Shown: one piece after another, positions 1 to 4,723 of the stretch
Numbering within the stretch: the stretch's first letter is position 1
Layout of the letters: every line of letters starts with the position of its first letter
Virus record (IMG/VR): IMGVR_UViG_3300029721_000076
Source: a virus
Taxonomy: Duplodnaviria; Heunggongvirae; Uroviricota; Caudoviricetes
DNA: 4,723 bases
Direction: 5' to 3' (one strand)
Position numbers and translations under genes: made by a program
The notes under the pieces: model-generated
The model's database searches: none
Seen by the model: the letters and a program-made list of their open reading frames with translations, nothing else
Told to the model about the DNA's origin: nothing

Positions 1-135
1 CGGACTTCGGGGGAAAAACGAGTATTTTTAGTCATCCTGTTTACCTCTTTCTCAGGAAGTTTAGTCTCCAGGATTCCCGGGGCGGTTCAGTATGGCGAGA
101 ACGCAGGTTATCTGGCTGAAAGAGGGGGTAATTAA
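1..135 (+). CDS. 3' end of upstream nin-region ORF (partial, product unknown)
   Basis: Frame 1 is open from the window edge to TAA at 133-135 (…GSLVSRIPGAVQYGENAGYLAERGGN*), ending 3 nt before the rusA GTG. GAGGGGG at 122-128 would serve as the rusA RBS. An alternative 16-codon frame-2 ORF (ATG 92 to TGA 140-142, [16 protein letters not shown]) overlaps the rusA start as GTGA, so the true frame is ambiguous. Confidence 0.3.
   Translation, partial: RTSGEKRVFLVILFTSFSGSLVSRIPGAVQYGENAGYLAERGGN
65..90. repeat. Left copy of a 26-nt imperfect inverted repeat (partner 4644-4669)
   Basis: TCTCCAGGATTCCCGGGGCGGTTCAG here versus the reverse complement of 4644-4669, TCTCCAGGAAACCCGGGGCGGTTCAG: 24 of 26 identical. 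Confidence 0.7.
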
Positions 136-138
136 GGC

Positions 139-501
139 GTGAATACTTACCACATCACACTACCCTGGCCGCCGAGCAATAACCGCTACTACCGCCATAA
201 TCGAGGGCGCACGCACATCAGCGCAGAAGGGCAGGCATACCGCGATAACGTCGCCCGAATCATTAAAGGCTCAATGCTGGATATCGGTCTGGCTATGCCT
301 GTGAAAATCCGCATTGAGTGCCACATGCCGGATCGCCGTCGCCGTGACCTGGATAATCTACAAAAAGCCTCTTTTGACGCACTCACCAAAGCAGGTTTCT
401 GGCTGGATGATGCTCAGGTCGTTGATTACCGCGTTGTGAAGATGCCTGTTACCAAAGGTGGGAGGCTGGAACTGACCATCACCGAAATGGGGAATGAATG
501 A
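139..501 (+). CDS. rusA: Crossover junction endodeoxyribonuclease RusA (Holliday junction resolvase)
   Basis: 120-aa [29 protein letters not shown]…[11 protein letters not shown], recognised as the RusA family of lambdoid prophage DLP12. GTG start at 139 preceded by GAGGGGG; stop TGA at 499-501. Confidence 0.92.
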
Positions 502-638
502 TGTTTGAGTTTTATATGGCAGAACTTCTTCGCCACCGCTGGGGGCATCTGCGCTTATATCGTTTCCCCGGTTCTGTTTTGACCGATTACCGAATACTGA
601 AGAATTACGCCAAAACCCTGACAGGAGCAGGAGTATGA
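498..638 (+). CDS. ylcG: Small DLP12-type prophage protein YlcG (46 aa)
   Basis: ORF not in the supplied track (below its length cutoff). ATGATG at 498-503 overlaps the rusA stop (ATGA). Translation [46 protein letters not shown], stop TGA at 636-638. Position between rusA and Q matches the known ylcG locus. Confidence 0.5.
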
Positions 639-723
639 AGTCAGAGATAACAATCAACTAATACTGTTTTGTTGATTTTTGCTTGTAATTGGCGTTCTGG
701 TCTGATTTTTGTGGAGTAAGTTG

Positions 724-1107
724 ATGCGTGATATTCAGATGGTTCTTGAGCGTTGGGGAGCGTGGGCGGCTAATAATCATGAAGATGTGACCTGGTCGTC
801 CATTGCCGCCGGTTTTAAGGGATTAATTCCTTCAAAAGTAAAATCTCGCCCGCAATGTTGTGACGATGACGCTATGATCATTTGCGGGTGCATGGCCCGT
901 CTGAAAAAGAACAACAGCGATTTGCACGATTTATTAGTAGATTATTATGTAGTCGGTATGACATTCATGTCACTGGCAGGTAAGCATTGCTGCTCTGATG
1001 GTTATATCGGGAAAAGGTTACAGAAGGCTGAGGGCATAATTGAAGGGATGTTAATGGCATTAGATATCCAGTTAGAGATGGATATCGTTGTTAATAACTC
1101 TAATTAA
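724..1107 (+). CDS. quuD: Late-gene antiterminator Q (phage 82-type)
   Basis: [27 protein letters not shown]…[14 protein letters not shown] (127 aa from ATG 724), recognised as 82-type Q / QuuD. GGAG at 713-716 lies 7 nt upstream of ATG 724. The track's 709 start is a TTG and less likely. Stop TAA at 1105-1107. Confidence 0.9.
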
Positions 1108-1124
1108 TATGCCAATTGTTTACT

Positions 1125-1158
1125 AAAAATTATTAAAAATGGGGCGTTGAGACGCCCC
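1125..1158 (-). terminator. Candidate intrinsic terminator for the nmpC transcript
   Basis: Stem GGGGCG (1141-1146) / CGCCCC (1153-1158) with 6-nt loop. On the minus strand it is followed by ATTTTTAATAATTTTT (complement of 1125-1140). About 140 nt downstream of the nmpC stop. Confidence 0.4.
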
Positions 1159-1246
1159 CAAAAATAAAGGGTAATATATAACAGAAGGTTTATATAGTTA
1201 GAAGCAAGGTTGTGCTTCTAAAGGAAGTGGCTTGAGGGAGCCACTT

Positions 1247-1288
1247 ATATGTTGGGGAGGCAACGCCTCCCGCAACATATCTTTTTCG
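1247..1288 (+). terminator. Candidate intrinsic terminator downstream of Q (possible tR'-like)
   Basis: Long imperfect hairpin: 1247-1260 pairs with 1266-1280 (about 14 bp, one bulged G, 5-nt loop caacg, GC-rich core GGGGAGG/CCTCCC), followed immediately by CTTTTTCG at 1281-1288 on the + strand. No U-tract on the minus strand. Confidence 0.55.
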
Positions 1289-1296
1289 TAATCAGA

Positions 1297-2379
1297 TTAG
1301 AACTGGTAAACCAGACCTACAGCGACGATGTCGTCGGTATCAATATCAGCTGTTTTGGTAAACTTACTATCGTCAATTAAGTTGATTTTGTAATCAACAA
1401 AAGTGGACATGTTTTTATTAAAGTAGTAAGTAGCACCGACATCGACATACTTGACTAAGTCTCGGTCACCATGAACACCAAGGTCTTTACCTTTTGACTG
1501 AAGGTAAGCAACAGATGGGCGCAGACCGAAGTCAAACTGATATTGTGCTACTGCTTCAAAGTTTTGTGCTTTGTTTGCAATATGGTTATTACCAAAAACG
1601 GTCATATTCTGAGTTTCAGAATATGTGGTAGCCAGATAGATATTGTTCGCATCATATTTCAGGCCTGCAGCCCATACTTCCGCATTTTTGCCGGAGGCAT
1701 TGAATTTGCTCTTACCATAGGCGACCTGACCGTCAGTGCGATCTGATTTAGCATAGGTTGCACCCACGCCGAATCCTTCATACTCATAAGTAGTGGAGAA
1801 ACCGAAACCATCACCATTGGCTTCAGTTACGTCAGTGCGGTCATTTTTACCCTGATACTGAGCAGCAAAGTTCAGGCCATCGACCAGACCAAAGAAGTCG
1901 TTGTTACGATAAGTTGCAACACCAGTAGTGCGACCAGTCATGAACACATCTGTTTGGGTCCAGGTATCACCACCGAATTCTGGCAGAACGTCAGTCCACG
2001 CACCGATGTCGTATGCTACACCGTAGTTACGGCCGTAATCGATTGAGCCGTAATCACCAAATTTCAGGCCTGCAAATGCAAGACGGGTTTTGTCTTTGGA
2101 AGAACCTTGAGATTCAGCGCGGTTGCCTTTGAATTCATATTCCCACTGACCGAAACCAGTCAGTTGATCGTTGATTTGGGTTTCACCTTTGAAGCCAAGA
2201 CGGGCATAAGTAGTATCACCATCATCTGCATCATTAGAGGAGAAGTAGTGCTTAGCATTAACTTTCCCGTACAGATCCAGCTTGTTACTGTCTTTATTAT
2301 AAATTTCAGCTGCCTGAGCAGACATCGCCATCAGTACTGATGCAGCTACAGCAGAAATTGCCACTGTTAATTTTTTCAT
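1297..2379 (-). CDS. nmpC: General outer-membrane porin, NmpC/OmpD family (OmpC/OmpF/PhoE superfamily), apparently intact
   Basis: 360-aa product [23 protein letters not shown]|[17 protein letters not shown]… ending …[12 protein letters not shown]. It has a typical signal peptide, the classic porin N-terminus and a C-terminal Phe. Start ATG at 2379 (complement of CAT 2377-2379) with AAAGGG upstream. The track's longer 380-aa start adds an unlikely 20-aa extension before the signal peptide. Confidence 0.92.
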
Positions 2380-2470
2380 CGTGAGCCCTTTTTTTGAACT
2401 ATTATTAAAAAATGATGTCACTGCGCGATAAATATTCATCTAATCAATGTGATTATTTCAAGATGTAAGT
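2380..2470 (-). promoter_or_regulatory. Putative nmpC 5' UTR / promoter region with candidate CRP half-site
   Basis: AT-rich sequence directly upstream of the nmpC ATG. It contains AATGTGAT (TGTGA at 2449-2453), matching one CRP half-site; the second half-site is weak. No unambiguous -10/-35 pair could be fixed by eye. Confidence 0.3.
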
Positions 2471-2658
2471 TTTGGTTTCTCGTTTGATTTGTGAAGTAGA
2501 TCTCTATTTTTATCTGAACTTTTTTCTATCGAATCCTATTCATGGCTCTTGGCTGAATAAAAATAAATCTATTAGCCAATTTATATTAATGGCTGTTATT
2601 TATAAGTGCTCTATAATTTGAAGGTTTAATTTAAATCGGCTAAAAATAACGCTGGAAA

Positions 2659-2680
2659 TTATTTGTTGGTTATTTGTTGA
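2659..2680. repeat. Tandem direct repeat of an 11-mer (TTATTTGTTGG / TTATTTGTTGA)
   Basis: Two adjacent copies, 10/11 identical, inside the AT-rich ORF-free region. Confidence 0.6.
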
Positions 2681-2806
2681 GATTTGCTTATGTATTTGTA
2701 GTGGTGTTTTCAATACTCGGTAGCATTCTCGCAAATATCATTTAGTGGTTTACGTACGTAAAAAATTGGTTATGCTGTTAAGAGTGGTTACTTCGTCACA
2801 CAGCTT

Positions 2807-2840
2807 AAACCCGCCGTCGAGCGGGTTTTTCCATTTTTTG
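2807..2840 (+). terminator. Candidate intrinsic terminator upstream of the lysis cassette
   Basis: Stem AAACCCGC (2807-2814) / GCGGGTTT (2821-2828) with loop CGTCGA, followed by TTCCATTTTTTG (2829-2840). The minus-strand side has no U-tract. No + strand CDS lies upstream of it. Confidence 0.5.
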
Positions 2841-2951
2841 AGTCTCGATATTAGCTGATAACCCAATACCTGAGTTATTCACTGACTCCGAGTCTGTTAC
2901 GTTTCGTAGTATTCCCTCAATTTACACCCGCTTTGTCTGCGAGGTGGGGTT

Positions 2952-3167
2952 ATGAAATCCATGGATAAGTTAACAACGGGTGTCGCCTATGGCACCTCAG
3001 CAGGTAGTGCCGGGTACTGGTTTTTACAGCTGCTAGATAAAGTCACGCCCTCACAGTGGGCGGCAATTGGAGTGCTGGGTAGCCTGGTATTTGGCCTGCT
3101 GACGTACCTGACAAACCTTTATTTCAAGATTAAAGAAGATAAGCGCAAGGCTGCGAGAGGTGAATAA
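2952..3167 (+). CDS. essD: Class II holin (pinholin, phage 21 S-type) with dual-start motif
   Basis: 71-aa [34 protein letters not shown]…[13 protein letters not shown]. Met1 and Met4 (ATG 2952 and 2961) form the S21 antiholin/holin dual-start pattern. Two hydrophobic segments are present. RBS GAGGTGG at 2941-2947. Confidence 0.9.
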
Positions 3168-3664
3168 TGCCTCCATCATTACGAAAAGCCGTTGCTGCTG
3201 CTATTGGTGGCGGAGCAATTGCTATAGCATCAGTGTTAATTACTGGCCCAAGTGGTAACGATGGTCTGGAAGGTGTCAGCTACATACCATACAAAGATAT
3301 TGTTGGTGTATGGACTGTATGTCACGGGCATACAGGAAAAGACATCATGCTCGGTAAAACGTATACCAAAGCAGAATGCAAAGCACTCTTGAATAAAGAC
3401 CTTGCCACTGTCGCCAGACAAATTAACCCGTACATCAAAGTCGATATACCGGAAACAACGCGCGGCGCTCTTTACTCATTCGTTTACAACGTGGGTGCTG
3501 GCAATTTCAGAACATCGACGCTTCTTCGCAAAATAAACCAGGGCGATATCAAAGGCGCATGTGATCAGCTACGTCGCTGGACATATGCTGGCGGTAAGCA
3601 ATGGAAAGGTCTCATGACTCGTCGTGAGATTGAGCGTGAAATCTGTTTGTGGGGTCAGCAATGA
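3167..3664 (+). CDS. rrrD: SAR endolysin (phage 21 R-type lysozyme with N-terminal signal-arrest-release domain)
   Basis: 165-aa [42 protein letters not shown]… with a Gly/Ala-rich weakly hydrophobic N-terminal segment and a lysozyme-like body. The start overlaps the holin stop (TAATG). Confidence 0.92.
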
Positions 3665-4122
3665 ACAGAGTAACCGCGATTATCTCCGCTCTGGTTATCT
3701 GCATCATCGTCTGCCTGTCATGGGCTGTTAATCATTACCGTGATAACGCCATTACCTACAAAGCCCAGCGCGACAAAAATGCCAGAGAACTGAAGCTGGC
3801 GAACGCGGCAATTACTGACATGCAGATGCGTCAGCGTGATGTTGCTGCGCTCGATGCAAAATACACGAAGGAGTTAGCTGATGCGAAAGCTGAAAATGAT
3901 GCTCTGCGTGATGATGTTGCCGCTGGTCGTCGTCGGTTGCACATCAAAGCAGTCTGTCAGTCAGTGCGTGAAGCCACCACCGCCTCCGGCGTGGATAATG
4001 CAGCCTCCCCCCGACTGGCAGACACCGCTGAACGGGATTATTTCACCCTCAGAGAGAGGCTGATCACTATGCAAAAACAACTGGAAGGAACCCAGAAGTA
4101 TATTAATGAGCAGTGCAGATAG
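3661..4122 (+). CDS. rzpD: Rz-type inner-membrane spanin (i-spanin)
   Basis: 153-aa product from ATG 3661 ([23 protein letters not shown]…KYINEQCR) with an N-terminal transmembrane segment followed by a charged, helix-prone region. The start overlaps the endolysin stop (ATGA). The track's 3649 start is a non-ATG extension. Confidence 0.88.
3881..4063 (+). CDS. rzoD: Rz1-type outer-membrane lipoprotein spanin (o-spanin), embedded in rzpD
   Basis: 60-aa ORF wholly inside rzpD in another frame: [20 protein letters not shown]|TSKQ… with a lipobox (VVGC) and proline-rich mature part (PPPPPAW…PPPDW), the hallmark of Rz1. Confidence 0.85.
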
Positions 4123-4153
4123 AGCTGCCCATATCGATGGGCAACTCATGCAA

Positions 4154-4447
4154 TTATTGTGAGCAATACACACGCGCTTCCAGCGGAGTATAAATGCCTA
4201 AAGTAATAAAACCGAGAAATCCATTTACGAATGTTTGCTGGGTTTCTGTTTTAACAACATTTTCTGCGCCGCCACAAATTTTGGCTGCATCAACAGTTTT
4301 CTCCTGTCCAATTCCCGAAACGAAGAAATGATGGGTGATGGTTTCCTTTGGTGTTACTGCTGTCGGTTTGTTTCCAACAGTAAACGTCTGTTGAGCACAT
4401 CCTGTAATAAGCATTGCCAGAGCGGCAGAAAACAACATTTTTTTCAT
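4154..4447 (-). CDS. borD: Bor family lipoprotein (serum-resistance protein, Iss homologue)
   Basis: 97-aa product from ATG 4447: MKKMLFSAALAMLITGC|AQQTFTVGNKP…EARVYCSQ with a lipoprotein signal peptide and lipobox LITGC. AGGA RBS upstream on the minus strand. The track's 113-aa version is an unlikely upstream extension. Confidence 0.9.
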   Translation of the reverse strand: MKKMLFSAALAMLITGCAQQTFTVGNKPTAVTPKETITHHFFVSGIGQEKTVDAAKICGGAENVVKTETQQTFVNGFLGFITLGIYTPLEARVYCSQ

Positions 4448-4563
4448 CTTATTATCCTGCATTGTTAAAAACGGCAGAATCCTATGTGACAACAATTAAA
4501 CGATAGTTAAATGGATTGATGAAAATTAAAACTATATAGGTGGATGCTCAGCCTATTGGAGGA

Positions 4564-4571
4564 GGGGGGGG
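4564..4571. repeat. Homopolymeric G8 tract (C8 on minus strand) in the borD upstream intergenic region
   Basis: GGAGGGGGGGGCAC read directly from the sequence; lies between the right-edge ORF stop and the borD start. Confidence 0.85.
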
Positions 4572-4604
4572 CACTCAGAATCCTGTGGAATGAAATAAAC
4601 CGCT

Positions 4605-4723
4605 CTATCTGTCCATTACCCTTTTAGCTGCGCTGTATCGTCGCTGAACCGCCCCGGGTTTCCTGGAGAGTATTTTATCTGTGAACTCAGGCTGCCAGAT
4701 CATCGTTTCCGATGGAAGCATAA
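4605..4723 (-). CDS. Partial ORF at right edge (ybcV-position gene, product unknown)
   Basis: This is the only minus-strand frame open at the edge: …MLPSETMIWQPEFTDKILSRKPGAVQRRYSAAKRVMDR*, stop TAG (complement of 4605-4607). The ATG at 4721 may be internal, so the gene probably continues beyond the window. Confidence 0.3.
   Translation of the reverse strand, partial: MLPSETMIWQPEFTDKILSRKPGAVQRRYSAAKRVMDR
4644..4669. repeat. Right copy of the 26-nt imperfect inverted repeat (partner 65-90)
   Basis: Reverse complement matches 65-90 at 24/26 positions; similarity decays outside the core. Confidence 0.7.

Follow-up and report, generated by a model that had tools for sequence, protein, structure and literature searches.

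A predicted phage 21-type pinholin/SAR-endolysin/spanin lysis cassette in a lambdoid DLP12-type Escherichia coli prophage

The window analysed here, a DNA stretch of 4,723 nt, very probably carries at 2952-4122 the intact lysis cassette of a lambdoid DLP12-type E. coli prophage, which would act via the phage 21 pinholin/SAR-endolysin/spanin pathway. The ORF list and its translations gave four complete genes in this interval, S, R, Rz and Rz1, all on the plus strand and in reading frames 2, 1, 0 and 1, respectively, at exactly the coordinates where an earlier sequence-only reading had placed a four-gene lysis cassette. The ORFs are free of frameshifts and premature stops, and all four products were assigned to the PHROGs category 'lysis'. 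The Pfam bit scores of the four proteins were judged against the curated cut-offs and lay far above them, and by this measure the matches far exceed chance. Overlapping gene junctions had also been described, and both were found: at the S/R junction, TAATG (3165-3169), the TAA stop at 3165-3167 and the R ATG at 3167-3169 have one base in common, and at the R/Rz junction, ATGA (3661-3664), the Rz ATG at 3661-3663 overlaps the R stop TGA at 3662-3664. Because of these overlapping stops and starts, translation of the cassette is probably coupled. Four minus-strand ORFs (3964-4173, 3239-3421, 3054-3179 and 2753-2866) and one plus-strand ORF (2745-2855) were rejected as genes, as they lacked a Pfam match.

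The S ORF matched the P21 holin S family PF04971 (E=2e-35, 121 bits against a cut-off of 26), a family of class II holins or pinholins, with 63 of the 64 profile positions covered. Its N-terminus, M1-K2-S3-M4, contains the MKSM dual start that had been claimed for the holin and offers two candidate starts, at 2952 and 2961; the longer motif MKSMDK is identical to that of S21. From Met1 the ORF would yield the antipinholin S71 (71 aa, 2952..3167), identified by PF04971 and by identity to the 434B/DLP12 copy and S21, and from Met4 the pinholin S68 (68 aa, 2961..3167); annotations of phages 21 and 434 list the two products as separate entries. By hydropathy calculation only, S has two uncharged stretches, at residues 7-28 and 31-58. 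The predicted TMD1 (7-28) is weakly hydrophobic (mean KD 0.70, 55% G/A/S/T), and TMD2 (36-58) is strongly hydrophobic (KD 1.5) and keeps G40/G43/S44/G48, which we take to be the glycine-zipper interface. Pinholes of the S21 family are heptameric and ~2 nm in size; they depolarise the membrane and cannot release a soluble endolysin, and the role of the extra positive charge at the antiholin N-terminus has been described (PMC9636201).

The S allele is of the DLP12 EssD type, being identical to the phage 434B copy at all 71 residues, and it shares 61 of 71 residues with S21 (73-78% nt identity); the ten differing positions include W27L in TMD1. Since S is of the EssD type and has 77% nt identity to S21, the cassette is, on these alignments, a mosaic. 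TMD1 is slightly more hydrophobic than its counterpart in S21 (KD 0.70 vs 0.52), which suggests that lysis timing may differ from that of S21. Upstream of the gene, folding indicated a 9-bp hairpin over the Shine-Dalgarno of both S starts (2927..2948, plus strand; RBS positions as in the 434B annotation), a possible but weak sdi-like element. Its folding was not better than that of shuffled sequence (z = -0.35), and its form is not conserved in phage 21.

The R gene (rrrD, 3167..3664) was predicted to encode a SAR endolysin of 165 aa, a GH24 true lysozyme matching PF00959 (E=1.3e-45, 155 bits against a cut-off of 22). Solved structures exist for R21 (3HDE) and RrrD (4ZPU), and the protein matches either one at 164 of 165 residues; it carries E35-x8-D44-x5-T50, an instance of the catalytic motif E-x8-D-x5-T given for such lysozymes (PMC9239132). 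Residues 8-31 are charge-free and residues 8-26 consist to 63% of G/A/S/T; this Gly/Ala-rich stretch, together with identity to R21 over residues 1-97, bears out the SAR N-terminus that had been proposed for the endolysin. R21 undergoes Sec-dependent export, is tethered to the membrane in an inactive state and is released on depolarisation (PMC9239132, PMC9636201), and because R is near-identical to R21, we infer that it would share this export, tethering and release behaviour. Residue 98 is T here and M in R21, PhiR26_1 and ev207. Since T98 also occurs in K-12 RrrD (4ZPU) and in R of phage 434B, and the rest is as in isolated phages, every R residue in the window is found in a phage or crystallised homologue.

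The i-spanin gene Rz (rzpD, 3661..4122, 153 aa) was identified by PF03245 (E=2.6e-54, 183 bits against a cut-off of 25) and by identity to phage 21 and lambda. The N-terminal TMD corresponds to a hydrophobic stretch at residues 1-27 (maximum KD 3.07), and Cys residues occur at positions 14, 18, 99 and 152. The o-spanin lipoprotein Rz1 (rzoD, 3881..4063, 60 aa) was identified by PF06085 (E=2.9e-20, 72 bits against a cut-off of 28) and by phage 21 identity. In agreement with the claim of an out-of-frame Rz1 inside Rz, 3881-4063 falls within 3661-4122 in the +1 frame of Rz, and Rz1 is wholly contained, starting at 0.48 L and ending at 0.87 L, where L is the Rz length. Its lipobox VVGC fits [LVI][ASTVI][GAS]C, with C20 followed by T21 at position +2 (no Asp); C29 is present, PPPPP occupies residues 32-36, and Pro makes up 10 of the 40 mature residues. 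The roles of spanin Cys residues, the lipobox consensus and penta-Pro data are available from previous work (PMC6139136). RefSeq leaves Rz1/rzoD unannotated in the closest genomes. The embedded o-spanin gene is real despite this missing annotation.

The assignment to a phage 21-type system was further supported by pairwise alignment with S, R, Rz and Rz1 of phage 21 (OL657228), the check that the sequence-only reading had suggested: 164/165 residues of R, 150/153 of Rz, 60/60 of Rz1 and 61/71 of S are identical, and the changes in S are only conservative. Neither of the residues whose loss had been named as refuting the assignment is missing: R retains the catalytic Glu35, along with D44 and T50, and Rz1 retains the lipobox Cys20. 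At the level of sequence, the cassette genes are complete, with every residue inspected in place. It is very improbable that the cassette merely looks intact while a subtle defect (R T98, the S substitutions or loss of promoter function, for instance) makes it non-functional. R does have T98 where R21 and the isolated phages have M98, and ten S positions differ from S21, but T98 is present in K-12 RrrD (4ZPU) and phage 434B, the S allele is identical in PhiR26_1, ev207 and 434B, the frames are uninterrupted by frameshifts or premature stops, and PhiR26_1 has an identical promoter/terminator block.

Identity of ~98-99% in Rz and Rz1 and of 91% in bor to the lambda proteins could instead point to a canonical large-hole holin and a soluble endolysin of the lambda S/R type. 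The sequences of S and R refute this reading, whose probability is close to nil: S gave no blastp hit to lambda S, and R gave two short hits only (E 4 and 9); S has two TMDs rather than three and matches PF04971, and the N-terminus of R forms an uncharged membrane segment not present in lambda R.

Expression of the phage 21-type cassette would be gated by Q and a pR'/terminator block, a level of control absent from the sequence-only reading. The Q-type late antiterminator QuuD (724..1107, plus strand, 127 aa), whose gene is intact and annotated as quuD in the closest genomes, matched PF06530 (Q 82/933W type) over the full profile (E=7.5e-54) and is 78% aa identical to the VT2-Sakai/933W-type Q. 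A putative late promoter pR' on the plus strand (2749..2776; -35 TTTACG, 16-nt spacer, -10 TATGCT) aligns with the 'putative late promoter' annotated in VT2-Sakai and 24B and recurs unchanged in phage PhiR26_1 and almost unchanged in ev207; its hexamers are weak, and a strict sigma-70 consensus scan missed it. On the same strand follow a putative Q-utilization element (2790..2797), placed on homology only by alignment to VT2-Sakai 743-750, and, between promoter and S, a tR'-like intrinsic terminator detected by terminator scan (2807..2836), with an 8-bp G+C-rich stem and then a T run. The terminator hairpin is present in the centroid fold (~-12 kcal/mol) and aligns with an annotated rho-independent terminator; its stem is the same in VT2-Sakai, and its loop is different. 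As a whole, the 83-nt block at 2748-2830 is 77% identical to the promoter/qut/terminator region of VT2-Sakai/24B, where the features are themselves marked 'putative'.

A late promoter right after Q (1108-1296) was considered and rejected, as homology to known pR' regions is absent there and the homologous block is that at 2748-2830. Hairpins in 1141-1276 resemble Q and nmpC terminators, and 1141-1158 was flagged on the minus strand in the terminator scan. A tRNA gene search of the window found none; phage 21 and Stx phages have tRNAs upstream of S. An Rfam search of the window at a permissive threshold returned two sub-threshold chance hits only.

By analogy with the characterised homologues, QuuD (724-1107) would modify RNA polymerase starting from pR' (~2749-2776), resulting in read-through of 2807-2836 into S-R-Rz/Rz1. 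The two S starts would then give S68, the pinholin, and S71, whose extra Lys2 would keep TMD1 in the membrane and make it an antiholin. Meanwhile, R would be exported by Sec without the holin, and its Gly/Ala-rich SAR N-terminus would keep it tethered and inactive in the inner membrane. At the set time, S68 TMD1 would exit the bilayer, and TMD2 oligomers would form pinholes on the nanometre scale, causing the proton motive force to collapse. The SAR domain would thereby be freed, and R would refold to an active lysozyme (E35/D44/T50) that degrades the murein. Rz in the inner membrane and the outer-membrane lipoprotein Rz1 would finally form a disulfide-linked, periplasm-spanning complex that disrupts the outer membrane.

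The gene order of the window is rusA-ylcG-quuD-nmpC(-)-essD-rrrD-rzpD/rzoD-bor. The nmpC porin gene lies between Q and the promoter and is uninterrupted (360 aa, PF00267 E=9.5e-151). The VR50 genome is 100% identical over 90-4644, and its near-identical prophage lies in the modC-pgl-ybh region, adjoining ybhI and an IS-truncated hydratase gene. Judged by the uninterrupted nmpC, the ATG start of Rz and the position of the VR50 copy, the module in the window is of the DLP12 type and belongs to a lambdoid prophage other than DLP12. The integration site reported for DLP12 is argU.

Both ends of the window consist of IS3-family sequence, and the left one leaves no more than the last 53 nt of ybcO and lies 50 nt upstream of rusA, ahead of Q. 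This IS3-family end may sever Q from phage early transcription, so that in its host the cassette might be expressed weakly or not at all. The earlier suggestion that the prophage may retain lysis competence holds for the intact cassette only; the state of the prophage itself cannot be judged from a window bounded by IS3-family ends. These observations bear on a competing account, in which the cassette is intact but domesticated: it would have ceased to serve phage release in this host, being weakly expressed in an IS-disrupted, defective prophage and helping peptidoglycan turnover, vesicle control or biofilm formation, roles reported for DLP12 in K-12. Domestication would leave the biochemistry unchanged and give the cassette a different biological role. 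We consider it a serious contender, with somewhat less than an even chance of being right. Besides the IS3-family ends and the truncation of ybcO just upstream of rusA and Q, it is favoured by IS3/IS66 insertions and pseudogenes in the same prophage of the closest genomes, by the presence of the module in 3587/5426 genomes, and by the K-12 DLP12 module, which is reported to be transcribed, to have a role in envelope maintenance and to affect OMV production (PMC7918800). However, close relatives of the prophage keep full lambda-like head and tail genes, the DLI.6n prophage still has replication genes as well as one for a repressor-like S24 peptidase, and the LST200A prophage retains N, cII and replication genes. 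The same module is also carried by viable phages, high identity could stem from recent acquisition rather than selection, and the window by itself cannot show a prophage defect.

The 4.56-kb segment at 90-4644, with genes for the Q antiterminator, the NmpC porin and the serum-resistance lipoprotein Bor/Iss and with the complete lysis cassette, lies between the two ends of one IS3-family element, both of which point the same way. There is a slim chance that the segment moves between replicons, either as a composite or translocatable unit or, once excised, as a circle together with one IS; a self-contained, Q-activatable lysis-plus-virulence module would then be mobile. Otherwise, the window is simply a contig from a draft assembly that broke at IS repeats. 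When GTDB species representatives were scanned for exact copies of the left and right IS junctions, no match was obtained, and collinearity across either junction was found in none of the complete E. coli genomes and plasmids.

The sequence-only reading had called the system not novel, and we agree: at least 80% of the cassette is present in 3587/5426 complete E. coli genomes, and both the pinholin/SAR-endolysin/spanin pathway and the DLP12-type module are textbook material. Little is added to a cassette that is already known, given that an enzyme differing by one residue has been crystallised and that at least 80% of the cassette occurs in ~2/3 of complete E. coli genomes. For annotation, its use lies in the indication that an intact cassette could kill the cell if expressed, and that expression is expected to depend on QuuD acting at the promoter/terminator block directly upstream of S, not beside Q.

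When the cassette was compared with known systems, phage 21 (OL657228) shared the gene order, the lengths of 71/165/153/60 aa, the overlaps and the dual start MKSMDK, with 95-100% nt identity from R through bor. The region upstream of S is unrelated, however: in phage 21 it holds a Q21-type pR' together with two tRNA genes, and the Q of that phage is of another type. The DLP12 (qsr') set essD-rrrD(ybcS)-rzpD/rzoD, as in phage 434B (OL657227), shares S at 71/71 residues, a near-identical upstream region and the order Q, nmpC (opposite strand), S-R-Rz/Rz1, bor, and the 434B copy has 94.4% nt identity over window positions 1372-4644. Differences from DLP12 are found in Rz (147/153 in 434B/K-12, with a GTG start there and ATG in the window), in Rz1 (59/60, K-12 having P34R), in R (164/165, K-12 having V159) and in nmpC, which is interrupted by IS5 in 434B/K-12 and intact in the window. 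In K-12, higher plasmid expression of the DLP12 module leads to a lytic phenotype, and the module is reportedly controlled by Q, RpoE and Hha (PMC7918800); the pinholin/SAR/spanin mechanism has been reviewed (PMC9636201).

Phages PhiR26_1 (PV340555) and ev207 (NC_049949) share the module rusA-ylcG-Q-porin-S-R-Rz-bor, and their S, Rz and Rz1 proteins are identical to those of the window, while R differs solely at residue 98 (M98 there, T98 here). Nucleotide identity to PhiR26_1 reaches 99.3% over 2700-4122. In contrast to the window, both are free phage genomes without flanking IS elements; both phages are viable and plaque-forming, and the recorded host of PhiR26_1 is MG1655. In the Stx phages VT2-Sakai/933W/24B the promoter and the end of Q overlap, and tRNAs and stx come next, whereas in the window Q and the promoter are ~1.6 kb apart with the porin gene in between, and S begins 115 nt past the terminator. 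Lambda shares the operon logic, a dual-start holin and highly similar Rz (99.3%), Rz1 (98.3%) and bor (88/97) products, but its S, a canonical holin with three TMDs, and its R, a soluble transglycosylase, are both unrelated to S and R of the window.

Four plus-strand ORFs occupy 2952-4122, exactly where the sequence-only reading had placed a complete pinholin, SAR endolysin and spanin cassette. These are S (2952-3167, 71 aa; PF04971 'P21 holin S', E=2e-35), R (3167-3664, 165 aa; PF00959 'Phage lysozyme', E=1.3e-45), Rz (3661-4122, 153 aa from the ATG at 3661; PF03245 'Rz', E=2.6e-54), and Rz1 (3881-4063, 60 aa; PF06085 'Rz1', E=2.9e-20); the mechanical ORF list carries Rz on to an upstream GTG at 3649. 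Because the Pfam scores of all four genes were several-fold over the curated cut-offs, this arrangement is not a chance product. The PHROGs category was 'lysis' for all four, and opposite-strand ORFs in the cassette gave no family match. The dual start claimed for the holin was seen as an M-K-S-M N-terminus, with Met1 (2952) yielding 71 residues and Met4 (2961) yielding 68. The claimed overlaps were likewise found, TAATG at 3165-3169 combining the S stop with the R start and ATGA at 3661-3664 combining the R stop with the Rz start, and Rz1 lies wholly within Rz in the +1 frame, out of frame as claimed. A purine-rich Shine-Dalgarno sequence stands 5' of every start in the cassette, at the positions of the annotated ribosome-binding sites of phages 21 and 434, and the TAATG and ATGA overlaps may plausibly couple translation. 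Directly downstream of the cassette, a minus-strand gene (4154-4447) encodes a 97-aa Bor-family lipoprotein (PF06291, lipobox Cys17) identical to lambda Bor at 88 of 97 residues; RefSeq names this lysogenic-conversion gene product 'increased serum survival lipoprotein Iss'.

The two residues whose loss had been singled out as evidence against competence, the catalytic Glu of the endolysin and the lipobox Cys of Rz1, are both present (E35 and Cys20). R keeps the lysozyme triad E35-x8-D44-x5-T50, in line with the E-x8-D-x5-T motif (PMC9239132). As had been claimed for its N-terminus, the composition there predicts a signal-anchor-release domain, with residues 8-31 uncharged and 63% Gly/Ala/Ser/Thr across 8-26. 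S has two uncharged segments, a weakly hydrophobic TMD1 (7-28; mean KD 0.70, 55% G/A/S/T) and TMD2 (36-58; KD 1.5), in which G40, G43, S44, and G48 are kept. Rz1 carries a VVGC lipobox with Thr at +2, together with Cys29, PPPPP at 32-36, and 10 prolines among 40 mature residues, while Rz has an N-terminal TMD, C99, and C152; the functions of these key residues in Rz and Rz1 have been described (PMC6139136). With four complete genes and all checked functional residues in place, the cassette appears intact, as had been claimed, and because it is near-identical to characterised homologues it is very probably lysis-competent. For the K-12 DLP12 module, raising expression from a plasmid produced a lytic phenotype, and a Q-type antiterminator, RpoE, and Hha are reported to regulate it (PMC7918800).

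By analogy with characterised homologues (PMC9636201, PMC9239132, PMC6139136), lysis would begin when Q-modified RNA polymerase passes the terminator and S68 and S71 build up in the inner membrane, S71 acting as antipinholin because of its extra Lys2. Export of R by Sec would not need the holin, and the SAR domain would keep the enzyme tethered and inactive. On triggering, pinholes of ~2 nm would abolish the proton motive force, R would then be freed, refold, and degrade the murein, and the Rz-Rz1 complex would disrupt the outer membrane.

When the 312 nt 5' of S were used as query in a distant DNA search, hundreds of Stx phages matched window 2748-2830 at ~77-78% identity where their Q gene ends. 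In VT2-Sakai and 24B, this stretch bears the annotations 'putative late promoter', 'putative Q-utilization', and 'rho-independent terminator'. Alignment to these phages places a putative plus-strand pR' with a -35 TTTACG (2749-2754), a 16-nt spacer, and a -10 TATGCT (2771-2776); this assignment rests on homology to reference features that are themselves annotated 'putative', and a strict sigma-70 consensus scan did not pick up the promoter. A putative qut-equivalent maps through the alignment to 2790-2797 (plus strand), and the plus-strand terminator at 2807-2836 was recovered by both the alignment and an independent terminator scan, its stem being conserved. Over the pR'/terminator block (window 2750-2866, minus strand), PhiR26_1 (L006, 3351-3467) and ev207 (L007, 3330-3446), two isolated lambdoid phages, carry an annotated 38-aa 'hypothetical protein'; the ORF, for which Pfam gave no match, is probably a spurious call. 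Q itself (quuD) lies at 724-1107 (plus strand; PF06530, E=7.5e-54) and is 78% identical to VT2-Sakai Q. Whereas 88 nt separate the Q and promoter homologies in VT2-Sakai, the window has 1,692 nt, the extra DNA carrying an AT-rich spacer (2380-2747, 29% G+C) and an intact nmpC-type porin gene (1297-2379, minus strand; 360 aa; PF00267, E=9.5e-151), which thus stands between Q and pR'. The porin gene is labelled 'ompC' in RefSeq and 'OmpD' in phage records. Between the convergent quuD and nmpC 3' ends are four hairpins (1141-1158, 1200-1219, 1227-1246, and 1251-1276), presumably terminators of these two genes; only the first was flagged as terminator-like by the scan, on the minus strand. As judged from homology, the circuit from Q through the putative pR' and the terminator to S-R-Rz/Rz1 appears complete within the window.

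The window is bounded by the two ends of one IS3-family element, both on the minus strand: 1-89 is the left end, with the start of orfA (MTKNTRFSPEV...), and 4645-4723 is the right end. They are 98.7-100% identical to the 'IS3 family transposase' element of the closest genomes, E. coli VR50, DLI.6n, and LST200A. The left end cuts ybcO to its final 53 nt (90-142), and the right end lies 197 nt past the bor start. VR50 is 100% identical to window 90-4644, and no collinearity across either IS junction was found among complete E. coli genomes, plasmids, and GTDB representatives. The simplest and probable reading is a contig from a draft assembly, cut short on both sides by IS copies; a composite or circular unit is a much less likely alternative. 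Several 'plasmid' records of ~4.9 Mb in PLSDB are evidently chromosomes. Since the window ends in IS sequence, the genes by which the prophage's state would be judged (repressor, N, replication, and morphogenesis) would fall outside it. Intact rusA (139-501; Holliday-junction resolvase, PF05866) and ylcG (498-638) lie 5' of Q, with stop/start overlaps styled like those of the lysis cassette (GTGA at ybcO/rusA and ATGA at rusA/ylcG). With an IS 5' of rusA and Q, early transcription may no longer reach Q; for this reason, and with the prophage state out of view, the lysis module may have been domesticated and survive as a weakly expressed remnant, in the way reported for DLP12, which does not exclude the competence argued for the cassette itself. 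In the nearest genomes the prophage has retained lambda-like head and tail genes, yet it also contains IS insertions and pseudogenes. In VR50 it occupies the modC-pgl-ybh region, not argU as reported for DLP12, so the module is of DLP12 type and not DLP12 itself.

The cassette had been called not novel, and indeed at least 80% of it occurs in 3587 of 5426 complete E. coli genomes, while 37 phage records show at least 99% nucleotide identity over window 2900-4200. Each component of the cassette is part of a system that is already known and has been dissected by experiment. In the closest genomes (VR50, DLI.6n, and LST200A), RefSeq uses the gene names essD, rrrD, and rzpD, and its annotation of the rzpD loci lacks the embedded o-spanin gene rzoD/Rz1. 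In HM037272.1, a Bacillus thuringiensis CT-43 plasmid record, 2.25 kb (58002-60251) is 96.7% identical to the nmpC-S-R-Rz region; this E. coli-like DNA looks like contamination or misassembly.

Among known systems, phage 434B carries a DLP12-type copy whose S is identical to window S (71/71). Its nmpC is split by IS5, as is characteristic of the K-12 DLP12 (qsr') region, whereas the window copy is intact; its Rz starts with GTG (VSRV...) and its Rz1 has P34R, while the ATG start and PPPPP of the window represent the phage 21/lambda state. Identity to the lambda proteins is 99.3% for Rz and 98.3% for Rz1, whereas window S and R have no relation to lambda S and R. PhiR26_1, for which MG1655 is the recorded host, and ev207 encode S, Rz, and Rz1 identical to those of the window, and their R differs only at residue 98 (Met, Thr in the window). 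Two solved crystal structures, 3HDE (R21) and 4ZPU (RrrD of DLP12), each match window R at 164 of 165 residues; Thr98 also occurs in K-12 RrrD (4ZPU) and phage 434B and Ile159 in R21, so each residue is seen in a phage or crystallised homologue. Alignment with the complete phage 21 genome (OL657228), which had been proposed as a check, gave 164/165 for R (M98T, phage 21 to window), 150/153 for Rz (T45K, V50A, I54M), 60/60 for Rz1, and 61/71 for S (I7L, S8T, I11V, W27L, Q30K, S32T, L47F, F49L, R61K, R64K). Nucleotide identity, 73-78% in S, rises to 95-100% over the stretch that begins with R and runs through bor (joint compared over window 2952-3250 and phage 21 locus L003 3867-4165), and 5' of S no homology to phage 21 was found; the cassette is therefore mosaic, joined close to the S/R boundary. 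The assignment to the phage 21-type system is supported, with a distinct S allele, the mosaic joint, and the putative expression block as refinements.
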